Source of the DNA: Escherichia phage Lilleto
Strand: one strand, 5' to 3'
Sequence record: MK629529.1
DNA: 5,494 nt
Part shown: piece by piece, positions 1-5,494 of the stretch
Layout: each line of letters starts with the position of its first letter
Numbering within the stretch: position 1 is the first letter of the stretch
The notes under the pieces: model-generated
The model's input: the letters and a program-made list of their open reading frames with translations, nothing else
What the model was told of the DNA's origin: nothing
The model's database searches: none
Translations under genes and position numbers: made by a program

Positions 1-1635
1 ATGTCTGTAGAATTAGTAAAACCACTCGTCGAAGCCGCTGGTATGTCGACACTTACACAATCCCCAAACCTCCGTATCTGGAAACAGGTAAACACCCGCG
101 TAAAACTCTTAGAAGAAATCCTTGCTCACTGGACAAATGGAATCCGTCGCTGCCCTGAAACCCAAGACTTCTACATGAACCCAAATTCTCAACTGGCTAC
201 CACTATTGCCTATCGTGCCCATCAAAAAGGACACAACCCAAAACTTATTCAATACCCTGATACATTTACTCTTGACGATATTATTCGCCGTAAACCAATC
301 CCTCAAACTGCCCCTAACGAATTGCGCCTCTCTGATGAAATCGGTGAGGATTACCGCCTTACAGTTATCGCTATTGCTGACGAACTGCAAGAATGTTACG
401 ACGTGCTCGGACAACTTGATATTAATAACACTATAGACCACACCCCTAAAGGTAACGCCCACTGGAGTATGCTTTATGATAAACCTGTTAACACCCATTG
501 GTCACAGCTCGTATCTAAACGACCCCTTAAAGATATCCGCGCCGATTACAACTATGCAAAGGCGAAGGGTATTAAGGATGAATGCTCAAAAATGCTTGAG
601 GAATCCACCATGAAATCACGCCGGGGCTTTACCGTTCAACGATTGATGAATGCTATGCGCCAAGCCCACACTGACGGCTGGTATGTTGTATTCGACACTC
701 TTACTCTGGCCGATGATCGCATACAGGCTTTCTATGATAATCCCAATGCTCTTCGTGACTACTTCCGTGATATTGGTCGTATGGTGCTTGCTGCCGAGGG
801 TCGCTCTGCTAATGACTCACACGCCGACTGCTATCAGTATTTTTGTGTTCCAGAGTATGGCACACAGCACGGTCGTCTACATTTCCACGCAGTGCATCTT
901 ATGCGCACACTTCCTCTGGGTTCTCGTGACCCTAACTTCGGTAAGCTGGTACGCACTAATCGCCAAATAAATAGCTTGCAAAACACTTGGCCTTACGGCT
1001 ACTCTATGCCCATCGCAGTCCGGTACTCCCAAGACGCATTCTCGCGCGCTGGCTGGCTCTGGCCTGTCGACTCAAAGGGTGAACCCCTTAAAGCTACCTC
1101 GTATATGGCTGTCGGCTTCTACGTCGCTAAATACGTCAACAAAAAATCTGATATTGACATGGCCGCAAAAGGCCTAGGGAATAAAGAATGGAACGCATCA
1201 CTGAAAACCAAAATCTCTCTACTACCAACCAAACTATTCAGAATCCGAATGTCCCGCAACTTCGGGATGAAGATGTTATCAATGGCGCACCTGACCGCCG
1301 AAACATTAATCCAACTGACCCAACTGGGCTACGACTCGACCCCGTTCAACAACGTCTTGAAACAGAACGCCAAGAAAGAGCTGAAATCGAGGCTGGCAAA
1401 AGCATCTGTCGCGACCGTTTTGGCGGCGCAACCTGTAACGACCAATCTGCTAAAATTTATGCGCGATTTGACCCGAACAATCGGAGCGTCCAACCTGCAG
1501 AATTTTATCGCTTCAATGACTCAGAAATTAACACTCATGGATACTTCTGATGAAACCAAAAACTACCTTGCTGCTGCAGGAATTACTACTGCTTGCTTAC
1601 GAATTAAATCGAAGTGGACTGCTGGTGGAAAATGA
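1..1635 (+). CDS. A: Replication initiation protein A (rolling-circle HUH endonuclease)
   Basis: 544-aa ORF from the track. HUH-type motif HFHAVH and the paired catalytic tyrosines in [12 protein letters not shown] (Tyr codons at 1120-1122 and 1132-1134). C-terminal two thirds closely resemble phiX174 protein A from memory. Stop TGA 1633-1635 overlaps the gene C start. Start at nt 1 assumes the genome was rotated to the A start; if circular, GGAGG at 5481-5485 lies 9 nt upstream. Confidence 0.94.
412..441 (+). other. ori(+): Viral (+) strand origin of rolling-circle replication, 30-nt core nicked by protein A
   Basis: Exact occurrence of CAACTTGATATTAATAACACTATAGACCAC, the conserved 30-nt origin embedded in gene A of phiX174-type phages (from memory). 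Expected nick between G418 and A419. Confidence 0.85.
610..1635 (+). CDS. A*: A* protein (in-frame internal initiation within gene A)
   Basis: In-frame ATG at 610 (A residue 204) preceded by GAGGAA at 598-603. Product is 341 aa beginning MKSRRGF, the same length and N-terminus I recall for phiX174 A*. Expression is not provable from sequence. Confidence 0.6.
976..1005 (+). promoter_or_regulatory. Candidate promoter P_B inside gene A
   Basis: TTGCAA at 976-981, 18-nt spacer, TACTCT at 1000-1005, about 185 nt upstream of gene B. The -10 match is weak; the call rests mainly on position by analogy to phiX174. Confidence 0.25.
1188..1550 (+). CDS. B: Internal scaffolding protein B
   Basis: 120-aa ORF in a different frame, fully inside gene A. 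C-terminal part ([25 protein letters not shown]....[15 protein letters not shown]) matches my recollection of phiX174 B. ATG 1188 preceded by AGGGA at 1176-1180. Stop TGA 1548-1550 overlaps the K start. Confidence 0.9.
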
Positions 1636-1714
1636 AGAAATTCAATCTTGCACTAAAGAACTCGAGAGGGTCTTACTTCGCAACCTTTCGCCATCAACTC
1701 GCAATACTCTCTAA
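1550..1714 (+). CDS. K: Protein K (small membrane protein)
   Basis: Not in the ORF track (short); hand-translated from ATG 1550 to TAA 1712-1714, 54 aa: [54 protein letters not shown]. The core [20 protein letters not shown] of phiX174 K is conserved. It sits in the third frame across the A/C junction, the canonical K position. Confidence 0.8.
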
Positions 1715-1892
1715 GGCTGATGCCCTTGACGAGGAAAAATGGCTTAACATGCTGGGCGCTCTTCTTAAGGACTGGTTCCGCTACGAAGAACATTTCGTAC
1801 ATGGCAAACAATCTTTAGTTGACATATTAATCGAACGGGGGTTACTATCCCCCACACAAACAACCCGTAACAACAAAGGAAATACCAAATGA
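1632..1892 (+). CDS. C: Protein C (DNA maturation / switch to single-strand synthesis)
   Basis: 86 aa from ATG 1632 ([23 protein letters not shown]...), very similar to phiX174 C. ATG overlaps the A stop as ATGA (1632-1635); stop TGA 1890-1892 overlaps the D start as ATGA. The track's 1614 start is a GTG extension; the ATG is preferred. Confidence 0.9.
1819..1848 (+). promoter_or_regulatory. Candidate promoter P_D inside gene C
   Basis: TTGACA at 1819-1824, 18-nt spacer, TACTAT at 1843-1848, about 40 nt upstream of gene D. phiX174 has a similar TTGACA...TTACTAT arrangement upstream of D (from memory). Confidence 0.45.
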
Positions 1893-2344
1893 ACTCCAAC
1901 GAATCTGCTGTAGCCTTTCAAACTGCAATCGCTTCTATCAAAATGATTCAAGCCTCATCCGTCCTCGACCTTACCGAAGACGACTTCGAATTCTTAACTG
2001 GCGACCGTGTCTGGATTGCTACTGACCGCTCCCGCGCCCGCCGTGCTGTCGAGGCTTGTGTATATGGAACACTGGACTTTGTCGGGTATCCTCGCTTTCC
2101 TGCTCCTGTTGAGTTTATTTCTGCTGTTATCGCTTACTACGTTCATCCGGTCAACACCCAGACCGCTTGTCTCATCATGGAAGGAGCCGAATTTACTGAA
2201 AACATCGTCAATGGCGTTGAATCCCCAGTTAAGGCTTCCGAACTCTTCGCTTTCGTTCTCCGTGTCCGCGCTGGCTGTAAAGACGTCCTCGAAGGTGCCG
2301 AAGACAACATCCGCGCTAAACTCCGTGCACAAGGAATCATGTAA
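1889..2344 (+). CDS. D: External scaffolding protein D
   Basis: 151-aa ORF, near-identical over long stretches to phiX174 D (e.g. WIATDRSRARR.VEACVYGTLDFVGYPRFPAPVEFI). AAAGGA at 1874-1879 upstream of ATG 1889. Stop TAA 2342-2344 overlaps the J start as TAATG. Confidence 0.95.
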   Translation: MNSNESAVAFQTAIASIKMIQASSVLDLTEDDFEFLTGDRVWIATDRSRARRAVEACVYGTLDFVGYPRFPAPVEFISAVIAYYVHPVNTQTACLIMEGAEFTENIVNGVESPVKASELFAFVLRVRAGCKDVLEGAEDNIRAKLRAQGIM

Positions 2345-2351
2345 TGGCTAA
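2064..2351 (+). CDS. E: Lysis protein E (MraY inhibitor), overprinted in the +1 frame of gene D
   Basis: 95 aa from ATG 2064 (MEHWTLSGILAFLLLLSLFLLLSL...); N-terminal hydrophobic domain with the W4/LAFLLLLSL signature of phiX174 E. GAGG at 2051-2054 upstream. Stop TAA 2349-2351. The track ORF 2007..2351 is the same frame with an upstream alternative start. Confidence 0.85.
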   Translation: MEHWTLSGILAFLLLLSLFLLLSLTTFIRSTPRPLVSSWKEPNLLKTSSMALNPQLRLPNSSLSFSVSALAVKTSSKVPKTTSALNSVHKESCNG

Positions 2352-3761: not shown

Positions 3762-3772
3762 AGCCTATAACG

Positions 3773-3812
3773 TGACAGGGGGCGAAAAATTTTAATTTTT
3801 CGCCCCCTGTCA
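3773..3812 (+). other. F-G intergenic hairpin with 17-bp perfect stem; candidate complementary-strand origin element or terminator
   Basis: TGACAGGGGGCGAAAAA (3773-3789) pairs perfectly with TTTTTCGCCCCCTGTCA (3796-3812) around loop TTTTAA. The F-G intergenic region is where G4-type phages carry the primase-dependent complementary-strand origin and where phiX174 carries a terminator. Confidence 0.5.
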
Positions 3813-3862
3813 GGTTGAACAAGCGCAAGCGCGTTAGCTACCTAACTATAAGGACTACTCAA

Positions 3863-4396: not shown

Positions 4397-5434
4397 ATGT
4401 TTGGTGCAATCGCTGGCGGCATCGCCTCTACTCTTGCTGGCGGTCTAATGTCCAAACTGATGGGCGGCAATAAACAAGCCGCCCCTTTAACTCCCGGACA
4501 AGGCCTCTTTGCTACTCCTGAAACTACTATCTCTGCTGACAATGCAGGTATTCAATCTGTTATGCAGGGACCTAACCCGCCTAGCCCTGATAAGGCGGCT
4601 CCTACATTTACCGAATCTGCCGTCTCCTCACTTAAGGATGCTGGCAAAGGACTCCTCGATGGTACTCTACAAGCTGGCGGCTCTGCTGTTCAACAAGCTC
4701 TTCTTAACAAAATTGGCCTCGGTGGCAAATCTGCTGCTGATAAAGGCAAGGATACTAAAGATTACCTTGCTTCTGCGTTCCCAGAGCTCAACCCGTGGGA
4801 ACGCGCTGGCGCTGGTGCTTCCTCTGCTGGTATGGTTGACGCTGGTTTTGAAAACCAAAAACAACTAACCAAGATGCAACTTGACAACCAAGTCAAAATC
4901 GCTAAGATGCAAAACGAAACTCAAAAGGATATCGCTGGCATCCAGTCTGTCACATCACGCATGAATACTAAGGATTCTGTCTATGCTCAAAATGAAATGC
5001 TCTCTTACAACCAAAAAGAATCTATGTCACGCGTTGGCGCTATTCTCGAAAACACAAGCCTCACCAAACAACAACAAGTTTCTGAAATTATGCGCCAAAT
5101 GCTTACTCAGGCTCAAACCTCAGGACAGCACTTTACTAACGCTCAAATCCAAGAACTTACTCGAAAAGTCGGTGCTGATATTGATGCTGTTCGTGCTAAC
5201 ACTGAACGCACCCATGTAGAAACTGACCGCTCTAAACAGGAAGTCCAAAACTCACGTTATGCTTCATCACAGGTCGGTAAAACCGCCAAGGACGTATCAA
5301 ATGTCATTAGTGACGCATCTTCTGGTATTGTTGATTATTTTCGCGGCGTTGATAAAGCTGTGGCTGACACTTGGAACAATTATTGGAAAGATGGTAAAGC
5401 CGACGGAGTAGGCTCAAATATGTCTCGCAAATAG
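4397..5434 (+). CDS. H: Minor spike / DNA pilot protein H
   Basis: 345-aa ORF: [20 protein letters not shown]-terminus, glycine-rich region, and the KDGKADG.GSN.SRK C-terminus of phiX174 H. AAGGA at 4386-4390 upstream of ATG 4397. Stop TAG 5432-5434. Confidence 0.95.
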
Positions 5435-5435
5435 C

Positions 5436-5465
5436 TTGACAATCACATCATAAATCCTATCTAAT
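5436..5465 (+). promoter_or_regulatory. Candidate promoter P_A in the H-A intergenic region
   Basis: Consensus -35 TTGACA at 5436-5441 directly after the H stop; 18-nt spacer to TCTAAT at 5460-5465 (5 of 6 matches to TATAAT). Would drive gene A transcription across the circular junction. Confidence 0.4.
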
Positions 5466-5494
5466 AGCCTCCATTAACACGGAGGCTCTTTCGA
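5466..5494 (+). terminator. H-A intergenic hairpin (candidate post-H terminator; overlaps the gene A Shine-Dalgarno)
   Basis: AGCCTCC (5466-5472) pairs with GGAGGCT (5481-5487) around the 8-nt loop ATTAACAC, followed by CTTTCGA. The right arm contains GGAGG, 9 nt before the gene A ATG if the sequence is circular. Confidence 0.45.

Follow-up and report, generated by a model that had tools for sequence, protein, structure and literature searches.

The gene junctions considered here are the founding example of overlapping genes. They have been described in phiX174 since 1977, were seen in both phiX174 and G4 in the 1970s, and the same four are named in the phiX174 literature (Wright et al.); as biology, they offer nothing new. 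In phiX174 (Sinsheimervirus phiX174, NC_001422) the motifs lie at 49-53 (TGATG), 133-136 (ATGA), 390-393 (ATGA) and 846-850 (TAATG), with single bases shared at 51 (B/K) and 848 (D/J). The window that we analysed, a stretch of 5,494 nucleotides from Escherichia phage Lilleto (MK629529.1), has the same gene order, the same reading frames and the same four junction motifs. About 15% of the sequence is multi-coding in both phages, and a P_D-type promoter with the same hexamers lies inside gene C in each. The two differ in that their proteins share only 44-80% identity, gene E of phiX174 stops 5 nt before the D stop whereas that of Lilleto enters J, the J protein has 38 aa rather than the 28 aa of Lilleto, and the Shine-Dalgarno (SD) match of D is weaker in phiX174.

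The nearest classified relatives belong to the genus Gequatrovirus (ID2, G4, ID11 and ID18), with 78-82% nucleotide identity over 71-86% of the genome. All four junctions of ID2 are identical to those of Lilleto, and E of G4 reaches past the D stop into J just as it does here. In contrast, C and D of G4 and ID11 meet at TGAaATG and share no base, the overlaps of ID18 measure 14 nt at C/D and 8 nt at D/J, and K has 56 aa in the G4-type phages rather than 54 aa. A further group of phages, all unclassified members of Bullavirinae (Lilledu, Lilleput, lillemer, Lilleen, MG1 and SECphi17), has 93-98% nucleotide identity and the same A, C and D coordinates, and the K and J proteins of Lilledu and Lilleput are 100% identical to those of Lilleto. 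Differences within this group include GTGA at the A/C junction of MG1 (a GTG start for C at the same position, in a record with no annotated C) and a 6-nt insertion that separates D from J in Lilleen.

The gene pairs of bacteria and archaea that are coupled by termination-reinitiation (TeRe; Huber et al. 2019, PMC6728339) are a more distant point of comparison. These pairs are also co-directional with -4 or -1 overlaps, and usually carry an SD motif inside the upstream gene. The phage junctions would be candidate members of this class, and they differ in that two of the four are probably bypassed by internal promoters.

Identity of the genome and its genes

We consider it very likely that the window holds the whole genome, circularly permuted, of a microvirus of the phiX174/G4 type, and that its four junctions are the canonical, compaction-driven tandem overlaps of the A-A*-B-K-C-D-E-J block. 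Roughly 570 Bullavirinae genomes matched by nucleotide comparison. The nearest relative is Lilledu (97.7% identity over the full length), and sequence comparison places the genome in the subfamily Bullavirinae, within the Lilledu/Lilleput lineage. Lilledu and the other close relatives have no classification below Bullavirinae, and the best classified matches, both in the genus Gequatrovirus, are ID2 (79.5%) and ID18 (78.6%) over 83-86% of the genome. The 5494 nt, read as a linear sequence, hold one full gene complement, and this length would suit a small circular ssDNA genome of about 5.4-6.1 kb.

Genes A, B, K, C, D, E, J, F, G and H follow one another in this order on one strand, which is the gene set expected of Bullavirinae. 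The 30-nt viral-strand origin CAACTTGATATTAATAACACTATAGACCAC, likewise expected of this subfamily, lies inside gene A at 412-441. It is the longest invariant run in the genome, being unchanged in 12 genomes including that of phiX174, where ori+ is located at A residues Q107-D115 (mutagenesis preprint). All ten proteins tested match a microvirus family in Pfam; the matches of A, B, K, C, D, J, F, G and H are above the cutoff and that of E is below it (Microvir_lysis, 18.8 versus 25 bits). The eight ORFs are all intact, and homologues of the window's genes were located in 14 relatives. The extreme coding density that had been proposed from the sequence is evident, with 96.1% of the genome coding and 819 nt (14.9%) lying within at least two genes. 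Against Rfam, the entire window gave no match at E<=1.

The genes of the overlapping block all lie on the plus strand. Gene A (1-1635, frame 1) encodes the replication initiator of 544 aa (Pfam Phage_GPA, E=2.6e-60), and gpA occupies the same coordinates in Lilledu. An in-frame internal ATG at 610 would give rise to a putative A* (610-1635, 341 aa), which is assigned by position and whose 1026 nt equal the length of the annotated A* of ID2, G4 and ID18. Nested in A is gene B (1188-1550, frame 3) for the internal scaffolding protein of 120 aa (Phage_B, E=4.8e-44), a homologue of annotated B genes. Gene K (1550-1714, frame 2) encodes 54 aa and overlaps the 3' end of A (1550-1635) and the 5' end of C (1632-1714); its residues 1-52 align with profile positions 1-52 of the 56 in Pfam Protein_K (PF12283; E=1.3e-16, 61.0 bits, cutoff 25). 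Gene C (1632-1892, frame 3) specifies the DNA maturation protein of 86 aa (Phage_C, E=2.8e-40), and gene D (1889-2344, frame 2) the external scaffolding protein of 151 aa (gpD, E=1.2e-80). The lysis gene E (2064-2351, frame 3, 95 aa), whose start codon was picked by homology, is nested in D yet runs 7 nt beyond the D stop and 8 nt into J, thereby crossing the D/J junction; its product is 41-58% identical to annotated E proteins. Gene J (2344-2430, frame 1) encodes the DNA-binding core protein of 28 aa, which matches Microvir_J (PF04726) over its full length (E=9.3e-9, 36.2 bits, cutoff 30) and keeps the C-terminal motif RLWYVGG in 15/15 genomes. Downstream, at 2439-2456 on the same strand, the hairpin GTGGGACC/GGTCCCAC followed by a T-rich tail is a putative terminator at the position of T_J, a terminator described in phiX174. 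Judged by this position, the transcription unit with the four junctions would end here.

The absence of K and J from the supplied ORF track was reproduced with the default list of ORFs of at least 60 aa, which also starts C too far upstream, with a GTG at 1614, and E with a GTG at 2007. At 54 and 28 aa, K and J are missing from this mechanical track because they fall below the 60-aa cutoff, which is a simpler cause than gene overlap. The broader warning that gene finders are unreliable in this region is well founded. A*, B, K, E and J are missing from what GenBank records for Lilledu, Lilleput, MG1, lillemer and Lilleen, and equally from the gene calls for ENA and Logan contigs. Furthermore, no exact K, J, B or E protein was present in a collection of about 15 billion predicted proteins, in which the exact C protein does occur, from the public Lilledu and Lilleto records.

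Geometry of the junctions and its conservation

All four junction motifs are exactly where they had been reported. At B/K (TGATG, 1548-1552) the B stop TGA (1548-1550) and the K start ATG (1550-1552) have one base in common, as do the D stop TAA (2342-2344) and the J start ATG (2344-2346) at D/J (TAATG, 2342-2346). Four bases are shared both at A/C (ATGA, 1632-1635), where the C start ATG (1632-1634) precedes the A stop TGA (1633-1635), and at C/D (ATGA, 1889-1892), where the D start ATG (1889-1891) precedes the C stop TGA (1890-1892). From base composition alone, the chance of an ATG overlapping all four of the given stop codons is about 2e-4.

The original prediction also held that all three frames are coding at once around 1550-1635, which overstates the case. 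The same base belongs to three genes only at 1550, at 1632-1635 and at 2344, a total of 6 nt. Positions 1551-1631 are read in two frames, A and K; B and C both use frame 3, which is empty between 1551 and 1631. The only multi-base stretch in three genes is thus 1632-1635 (A, K and C), and base 2344 is common to D, E and J.

We compared the junctions in 15 genomes from three genera, including the alpha3 clade. TGATG at B/K is invariant (15/15 genomes). ATGA at A/C is kept in the window's clade, the G4-type phages and phiX174, is GTGA in MG1, and gives way to a gap of 26 nt in alpha3 and WA13. The other two junctions range more widely, C/D from -14 to +43 nt and D/J from -8 to +42 nt. At C/D the window shares ATGA with ID2 and phiX174, and the spacing is +1 in G4/ID11, -14 in ID18, +26 in alpha3 and +43 in WA13. 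At D/J most relatives keep TAATG, the exceptions being Lilleen (+5), an ID11 clone (+42), ID18 (-8) and alpha3/WA13 (+1). Because C/D and D/J are this labile, and because phiX174 is viable when decompressed, the sharing of bases is not required.

The invariance of TGATG cannot be ascribed only to K, since these bases also specify the conserved C-terminus of B (G-Y-F-stop) and the A residues S-D-E. No other region has as large an invariant fraction as the A/K overlap (0.72). The overlap contains a run of 22 nt at 1604-1625, just upstream of the SD site of C and running into it, that is invariant in 12 genomes from the window's clade to phiX174 and is the second-longest such run after the viral-strand origin.

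Selection on the overlapped reading frames

The original prediction had made purifying selection on each overlapping frame, K for example, the point on which it could be challenged. The first half of K passes this test and the second half does not. Across the 15/15 genomes of three genera, the K ORF and its ATG are retained at a length of 53-56 aa while protein identity falls as low as 37%. Under K codons 2-27, pS of A is 0.00-0.05, versus 0.39-0.53 in the part of A that overlaps nothing else (Fisher p 1.5e-5 to 9e-4), and K pN/pS over the same codons is 0.12-0.36 in comparisons with G4-type phages. The nonsynonymous rate of A is raised within the overlap while its synonymous sites are nearly frozen, a pattern that would be expected if the K frame is the stronger constraint. 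The comparison with phiX174 reverses the ratio for the first half of K (pN/pS 7.4), with small counts and a K N-terminus that differs, and we treat this value as noise.

Variation in K codons 29-54 follows the periodicity of C's frame (chi-square p=0.004), with no depression of C pS over this stretch. This half of K appears to evolve in C's frame with no constraint of its own. Codon periodicity in the K frame itself was not significant over codons 2-27 (5/5/9 or 5/9/10 variable columns, p=0.28-0.33), and this particular test is powerless because the block is frozen at all three positions.

These results bear on the idea that K is not a functional protein-coding gene, and that its frame is open by chance and conserved through constraints on A, on C and on the initiation of C translation. 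An open K frame is in itself weak evidence for a gene. Synonymous redraws of the codons that leave the A and C proteins unchanged preserve it in 25% of trials, and open stretches of 54 codons are frequent in the +1 frame of genes that overlap no other. The C-frame periodicity of the second half and the non-significant K-frame periodicity of the first would also agree with this idea, as would phiX174, which tolerates K nonsense mutants with no loss of fitness. We nevertheless find it very improbable, given the retention of ORF, ATG and length in every genome compared, the 61-bit match to Protein_K, the frozen synonymous and raised nonsynonymous sites of A within the overlap, and the burst size that is 3-6 fold lower without K according to RefSeq notes. 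As to E, the depression of the D synonymous rate beneath it is inconsistent between comparisons, and hence we make no claim about selection on this gene.

Predicted promoters, ribosome binding sites and start accessibility

A predicted sigma-70 promoter of the P_D type lies inside gene C at 1819-1848 (plus strand; TTGACA, an 18-nt spacer and TACTAT), and both hexamers align with the TTGACA/TACTAT of phiX174. It is the joint-best promoter match in the window (10/12, tied with 4881-4908). Genome-wide, the promoter and terminator scans were not enriched over shuffled sequences (10 versus 7.2±3.0 and 6 versus 4.3±2.3, respectively), and from the promoter scan we accept 1819-1848 alone because it is positionally homologous to phiX174 pD. 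In phiX174, harmful synonymous changes at the C residues V63, D64, L71-S73 and S75 coincide in position with pD (mutagenesis preprint). P_D within C is conserved as far as phiX174, and by homology it would be expected to function in Lilleto, with transcripts starting near 1855. A P_B promoter inside A is probable, with a predicted start near 1012, judging from its counterpart in phiX174, where the flux of transcripts is increased 2-6 fold by pB and pD; in Lilleto it did not pass the promoter scan, and only its -35 element TTGCAA is conserved.

Three of the downstream genes have SD-like sites within the coding sequence upstream, all on the plus strand and with anti-SD duplexes in the 1.6th to 11th percentiles. 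That of C (GGTGGA, 1624-1629) lies inside A and K and is the strongest, with a duplex of -7.2 kcal/mol (1.6th percentile genome-wide), and GGTGGA or GGCGGA precedes C in all genomes outside the alpha3 clade. The D site (AAGGAA, 1876-1881, -5.6 kcal/mol) lies inside C, and the corresponding D ribosome binding site of phiX174, at C residues I82 and G83, is mutation-sensitive (mutagenesis preprint). The J site (AAGGAA, 2331-2336, -5.4 kcal/mol) lies inside D and E and reads AAGGA(G/A) in most relatives. Of the 11 starts, that of K has the weakest SD match (-3.1 kcal/mol, 30th percentile), which does not exceed background. In predicted accessibility, the D start region is very open (5th percentile) and that of C has a high opening energy (10.1 kcal/mol, 93rd percentile). 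We also considered a conserved RNA hairpin that hides the C start and rejected it, as the MFE z-score is -1.8 with 13/200 shuffles as good, and the outer stem is broken in G4-type genomes.

Possible translational coupling at the junctions

The overlaps most likely exist because B, K, E and the tail of A, which arose or were extended by overprinting, are packed into a genome limited by capsid size, and we envisage that a ribosome ending at an upstream stop could restart at the overlapping AUG. All four gene pairs are co-directional with a -4 or -1 overlap, which is the geometry of TeRe pairs. An SD motif inside the upstream gene is common in such pairs but not obligatory. When E. coli pairs with ATGA or TGATG were tested, 4/5 were coupled by termination-reinitiation (Huber et al. 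2019, PMC6728339). In the papers on phiX174 and other microviruses that we consulted, we found no demonstration of coupling at any of the four junctions.

Coupling had been presented as an implication of the arrangement. It is plausible, yet the geometry does not imply it, considering the internal promoters, the labile C/D and D/J junctions, the SD sites that C, D and J have of their own, and the viability of decompressed phiX174. We propose B to K as the step at which termination-reinitiation is most likely to be of consequence: the TGATG here never varies, the SD match of K does not rise above background, and no mRNA bears K without B also being translated from it. Coupling from D to J is plausible because both genes are on all transcripts and the SD match of J is moderate. 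For A to C and C to D, coupling may be only a minority route and most initiation at C and D should be de novo, because mRNAs from P_B and P_D would include the start of C or D but lack that of A or C, and because both genes have SD sites of their own.

It is possible, if on balance doubtful, that the shared bases are a by-product of compaction with no role in expression, such that ATGA, TGATG and TAATG arise easily by drift and each gene initiates independently from its own ribosome binding site. Viable relatives do differ in geometry, from TGAaATG in G4, TAAatattATG in Lilleen and the 42-nt gap of the ID11 clone to the 8- and 14-nt overlaps of ID18 and the 26-43-nt gaps of the alpha3 clade. 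The SD matches of C, D and J, the sensitivity of the phiX174 D site to mutation, and pB and pD transcripts that lack the upstream starts are of the same tenor. Furthermore, phiX174 remains viable with all overlaps removed. Its burst size is then about 9-fold lower, however, with C reduced about 6-fold and the levels of A*, B, C, E and H changed, effects that a transcription-only model could not reproduce. A by-product would also leave unexplained why K, with no SD above background, has an invariant TGATG in 15/15 genomes, and E. coli pairs that overlap in this manner are usually coupled. Where a gap of at least 5 nt replaces an overlap, the SD is stronger on average (-7.5 versus -5.45 kcal/mol, for example AGGAG in alpha3), a difference that reflects few independent evolutionary events and again runs against independence of the overlapping starts.

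Coupling at A/C might instead act by unfolding, with an occluded C site being opened by ribosomes that read through it in A, or in K after arriving from B at TGATG. The high opening energy at the C start, the invariant stretch directly upstream of it, the geometry by which K-frame ribosomes would cross the C start on every pB transcript, and the 6-fold loss of C upon gene separation in phiX174 are all in keeping with this mechanism. It is improbable in our estimation, because the local fold is not significantly better than shuffles, G4-type genomes do not preserve its outer stem, covariation cannot be sought in a block that never varies, and K nonsense variants of phiX174 show no fitness loss. 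A related and very improbable proposal is that the importance of K lies mostly in its translation as a leader and not in its protein, with ribosomes passing from B to K across a partly occluded C site and so tuning C output. If true, it would explain why the first half of K and 1604-1625 are frozen while the second half drifts in C's frame, and also why K is dispensable as a protein even though its ORF is never lost. We continue to favour compaction as the likely origin of the overlaps, with termination-reinitiation as a plausible route of expression, above all at B/K.

Implications for microvirus genomes

The practical value of these findings lies in annotation. Given that A*, B, K, E and J are missing from every public record of this lineage that we inspected, and the exact K, J, B and E proteins from the protein collection, automated pipelines under-annotate small microviruses, by about five of eleven genes. 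For studies of selection on overlapping genes, or for the refactoring of phage genomes, the comparison provides a modest refinement, in that the B/K junction does not change whereas C/D and D/J do so readily, and that constraint on K is confined to the half overlapped by A.

Genome layout and the four junctions

The window is one full genome (5494 nt) of a phiX174/G4-type microvirus, with gene A placed first. It shares 97.7% identity along its entire length with Escherichia phage Lilledu and 93-98% with Lilleput, lillemer, Lilleen, MG1 and SECphi17, and the closest classified phages are of the G4 type (ID2, ID18, G4 and ID11; ~78-82% identity across 71-86% of the genome). Pfam hits above cutoff were obtained for A, B, K, C, D, J, F, G and H. 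The lysis-domain match of E was sub-threshold (18.8 bits against a gathering cutoff of 25), and E shares 41-58% identity with annotated E proteins. The exact C protein is present in the public records of Lilledu and Lilleto. The extreme coding density that had been claimed is evident, in that coding sequence makes up 96.1% of the window, with 819 nt (14.9%) belonging to two or more genes, near the 15.1% reported for phiX174.

Inspection of the sequence places all four junctions exactly where the original prediction had put them. The B stop TGA and K start ATG form TGATG at 1548-1552 (common base 1550), the C start and A stop form ATGA at 1632-1635, the D start and C stop form ATGA at 1889-1892, and the D stop and J start form TAATG at 2342-2346 (common base 2344). 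Given the stops, the joint chance of an ATG overlapping all four is ~2e-4 from base composition, but conservation is the stronger argument for the junctions.

Coding in all three frames had also been proposed for the whole stretch around 1550-1635, and this holds at base 1550 and at 1632-1635 only. A and J are read in frame 1, K and D in frame 2, and B, C and E in frame 3; because frame 3 is empty between B and C, 1551-1631 carries only A and K. Three genes otherwise coincide solely at base 2344, giving 6 nt altogether, and the third gene there, beside D and J, is the lysis gene E (2064-2351), which the original prediction lacked. E extends 7 nt beyond the D stop and 8 nt into J, whereas in phiX174 it terminates 5 nt before the D stop and in G4_WWN it reaches 31 nt into J. 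The observation is therefore real and precisely placed, except for the extent of triple coding.

Several other elements of the window are worth recording. An inverted repeat of 23 bp, nearly perfect and with a loop of 2 nt, lies in the F-G intergenic region (3769-3816). Judged by its position only, it may correspond to the complementary-strand origin said to lie in that region in G4-type phages, or to T_F and ori(-), which phiX174 has there. Directly upstream of gene A is a hairpin, AATAGCCTCC/GGAGGCTCTT (5463-5490), whose 3' arm includes GGAGG, the ribosome-binding site of A, and which closely follows a TTGACA at 5437-5442; the arrangement across 5437-5490 mirrors the overlap of pA, T_H and RBS-A in phiX174. 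Among all starts, predicted opening energy peaks at that of A (98th percentile). Finally, the first ATG, taken here as the putative start of H, lies at 4397, as in Lilleput (345 aa), and the annotated start in Lilledu (4439 in that genome) is 14 codons downstream, yielding 328 aa; the Pfam H profile begins only from residue 18 of the long form.

Conservation of the junctions among relatives

The four-junction feature is already known in all respects of importance. In annotated phiX174, the B end/K start is at 51, C/A at 133/136, D/C at 390/393 and the D end/J start at 848, and ID2 has all four junctions as in the window. The phiX174 literature mentions the four overlaps by name. A review by Pavesi credits the discovery of overlapping genes to Barrell 1976 and Sanger 1977, and treats K, E and the C-terminal tail of A as products of overprinting.

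A comparison of 15 genomes shows that two junctions are evolutionarily rigid and two are labile. TGATG at B/K is present in 15/15 genomes, including alpha3 and WA13, where K is just 37-44% identical. ATGA at A/C is retained by the window clade, the G4-type phages and phiX174; in MG1 (1632-1635 of that genome) it is GTGA, with C starting at GTG and the rest of its ORF intact, which explains why C is missing from the MG1 record. In the alpha3 clade this junction is replaced by a gap of 26 nt, accompanied by an AGGAG Shine-Dalgarno (SD) site. At C/D, ATGA occurs in the window clade, ID2 and phiX174; G4 and ID11 have TGAaATG, C and D overlap by 14 nt in ID18, and gaps of 26 nt (alpha3) and 43 nt (WA13) also occur. 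At D/J, TAATG is found in the majority. The two genes overlap by 8 nt in ID18 and are 1 nt apart in the alpha3 clade, Lilleen carries a 6-nt insertion (TAAatattATG, 2342-2352 of its genome), and an ID11 clone has a duplication-derived gap of 42 nt (2432-2479 of its genome) that holds a copy of the aaggagttatgtaATG initiation region. Since natural and laboratory variants exist in which D and J are apart, the D/J overlap is dispensable. Judged from these sequences, C/D and D/J are the labile junctions and B/K is fixed. The rigidity of TGATG is not attributable to K alone, because the same bases encode the conserved C-terminus of B (G-Y-F-stop) and A residues S-D-E.

Selection in the overlapping frames and the status of K

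Selection was assessed frame by frame by comparing the window with PJNS002, ID2, G4, ID18, phiX174 and alpha3, using Nei-Gojobori counts. With only ~18-20 synonymous sites per sub-region and phylogenetically non-independent comparisons, synonymous divergence (pS) of A was 0.39-0.53 in the A-only part versus 0.00-0.05 under K codons 2-27 (four G4-type comparisons; Fisher p 1.5e-5 to 9e-4), and it was also lowered there against phiX174 and alpha3 (p ~0.003-0.005). In the same nucleotides, the ratio of nonsynonymous to synonymous divergence for K was 0.12-0.36 and the nonsynonymous rate of A was elevated. The K frame thus looks like the stronger constraint in the first half of K, which agrees with the published view of the A tail as a late extension.

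Among region classes, the A/K overlap ranks highest in conservation (72% invariant columns), and it includes a 22-nt run, TTAAATCGAAGTGGACTGCTGG (1604-1625), that does not vary across 12 genomes ranging from the window clade to phiX174 and is frozen at all three codon positions. This run sits immediately upstream of the C SD site and reaches into it. Only the 30-nt viral-strand origin CAACTTGATATTAATAACACTATAGACCAC (412-441, within gene A) is a longer perfectly invariant run among the 12 genomes. Dual coding may explain the invariance of 1604-1625, and an additional nucleic-acid role, such as a constraint from the C initiation region, may act in this frozen block. The first half showed no significant K-frame periodicity (p ~0.3), since all three positions are frozen in the block ahead of the C start.

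The second half of K is different. Across codons 29-54, variable columns number 18, 12 and 6 at K positions 1, 2 and 3, which is the codon periodicity of C (chi-square p=0.004). Since the synonymous rate of C is not depressed there, neither column periodicity nor that rate revealed any K-specific constraint in these codons. Purifying selection on K, the point on which the triple-coding argument was to be checked, is therefore apparent for codons 2-27 and not for 29-54.

The K frame was open in 25% of simulations, and an open frame alone is weak evidence. In the non-overlapped genes (A-only, F, G and H), a frame shifted by +1 stays open over 54 codons in 9-39% of windows, and one shifted by +2 never does. 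The permissive +1 shift is the one that K uses with respect to A and E with respect to D; B is a +2 shift of A, so its 120-codon ORF is much less likely to be accidental. K nonsense variants were tolerated in a phiX174 saturation screen, and according to RefSeq notes K is non-essential, with a 3-6 fold effect on burst. The evidence as a whole makes K a conserved accessory gene with clear constraint in its A-overlapped half only.

Translational coupling

The original prediction held that the junction geometry implies translational coupling, an interpretation that is right in part. In its favour, E. coli gene pairs with ATGA or TGATG are mostly coupled by termination-reinitiation, to which an internal SD often contributes (Huber et al. 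2019, PMC6728339). The anti-SD match of K is the weakest among 11 starts (-3.1 kcal/mol, 30th percentile genome-wide), with values of -7.2 for C, -5.6 for D and -5.4 kcal/mol for J, and relatives with a junction gap of at least 5 nt have a stronger mean SD (-7.5 versus -5.45 kcal/mol). In phiX174 stripped of all overlaps, C was ~6-fold lower, B lower and A* higher, and burst size fell from 145 to 16, changes that a transcription-only model fails to reproduce.

However, that decompressed phiX174 is viable, and together with the labile C/D and D/J geometries this means that sharing bases is not required. Internal promoters also weigh against coupling as a general consequence of the geometry. The joint-best sigma-70 match of the window (TTGACA-18-TACTAT, 1819-1848) lies inside C, ~40 nt upstream of the D start, and aligns with phiX174 pD with both hexamers corresponding; in phiX174, both synonymous changes at those same C codons and changes in the RBS of D within C are detrimental. 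The pB -35 is conserved too, within A. In phiX174, transcript flux rises 2.0-2.5 fold at pB and pD according to RNA-seq, and 6.4 and 2.5 fold, respectively, according to qPCR. A large share of mRNAs carrying the C start would thus lack the A and A* starts, and many with the D start would lack that of C, making A-to-C and C-to-D coupling impossible on them. Very high accessibility is predicted for the start region of D (5th percentile), as expected of a highly expressed gene initiated de novo.

Our literature search found no experiments on coupling at these four junctions. We infer that translation of K probably depends on reinitiation after B, that J is possibly assisted by upstream translation of D, and that C and D mostly initiate independently.

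Implications for annotation

The warning that gene finders are unreliable here is supported by sparse public calls, although the loss of K and J from the ORF track has a simpler cause, namely length. The default ORF list (at least 60 aa) left out K (54 aa) and J (28 aa) purely for this reason. In the same list C begins at GTG 1614 and E at GTG 2007, so that the ATGA junction is concealed. In GenBank, the entries for Lilledu, Lilleput, MG1, lillemer and Lilleen carry 5-7 CDS, with A*, B, K, E and J all unannotated, and the same genes are missing from ENA and Logan contig calls. Exact K, J, B and E sequences were not found in a collection of ~15 billion proteins, even though two public genomes encode K and J with 100% identity. 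Callers of the Prodigal type have a minimum gene length and limits on same-strand overlap that would exclude J (87 nt) as well as nested or long-overlap genes. The remaining value of the four junctions is as an annotation warning for this phage lineage, with a small refinement as to which of them, and which half of K, are under constraint.
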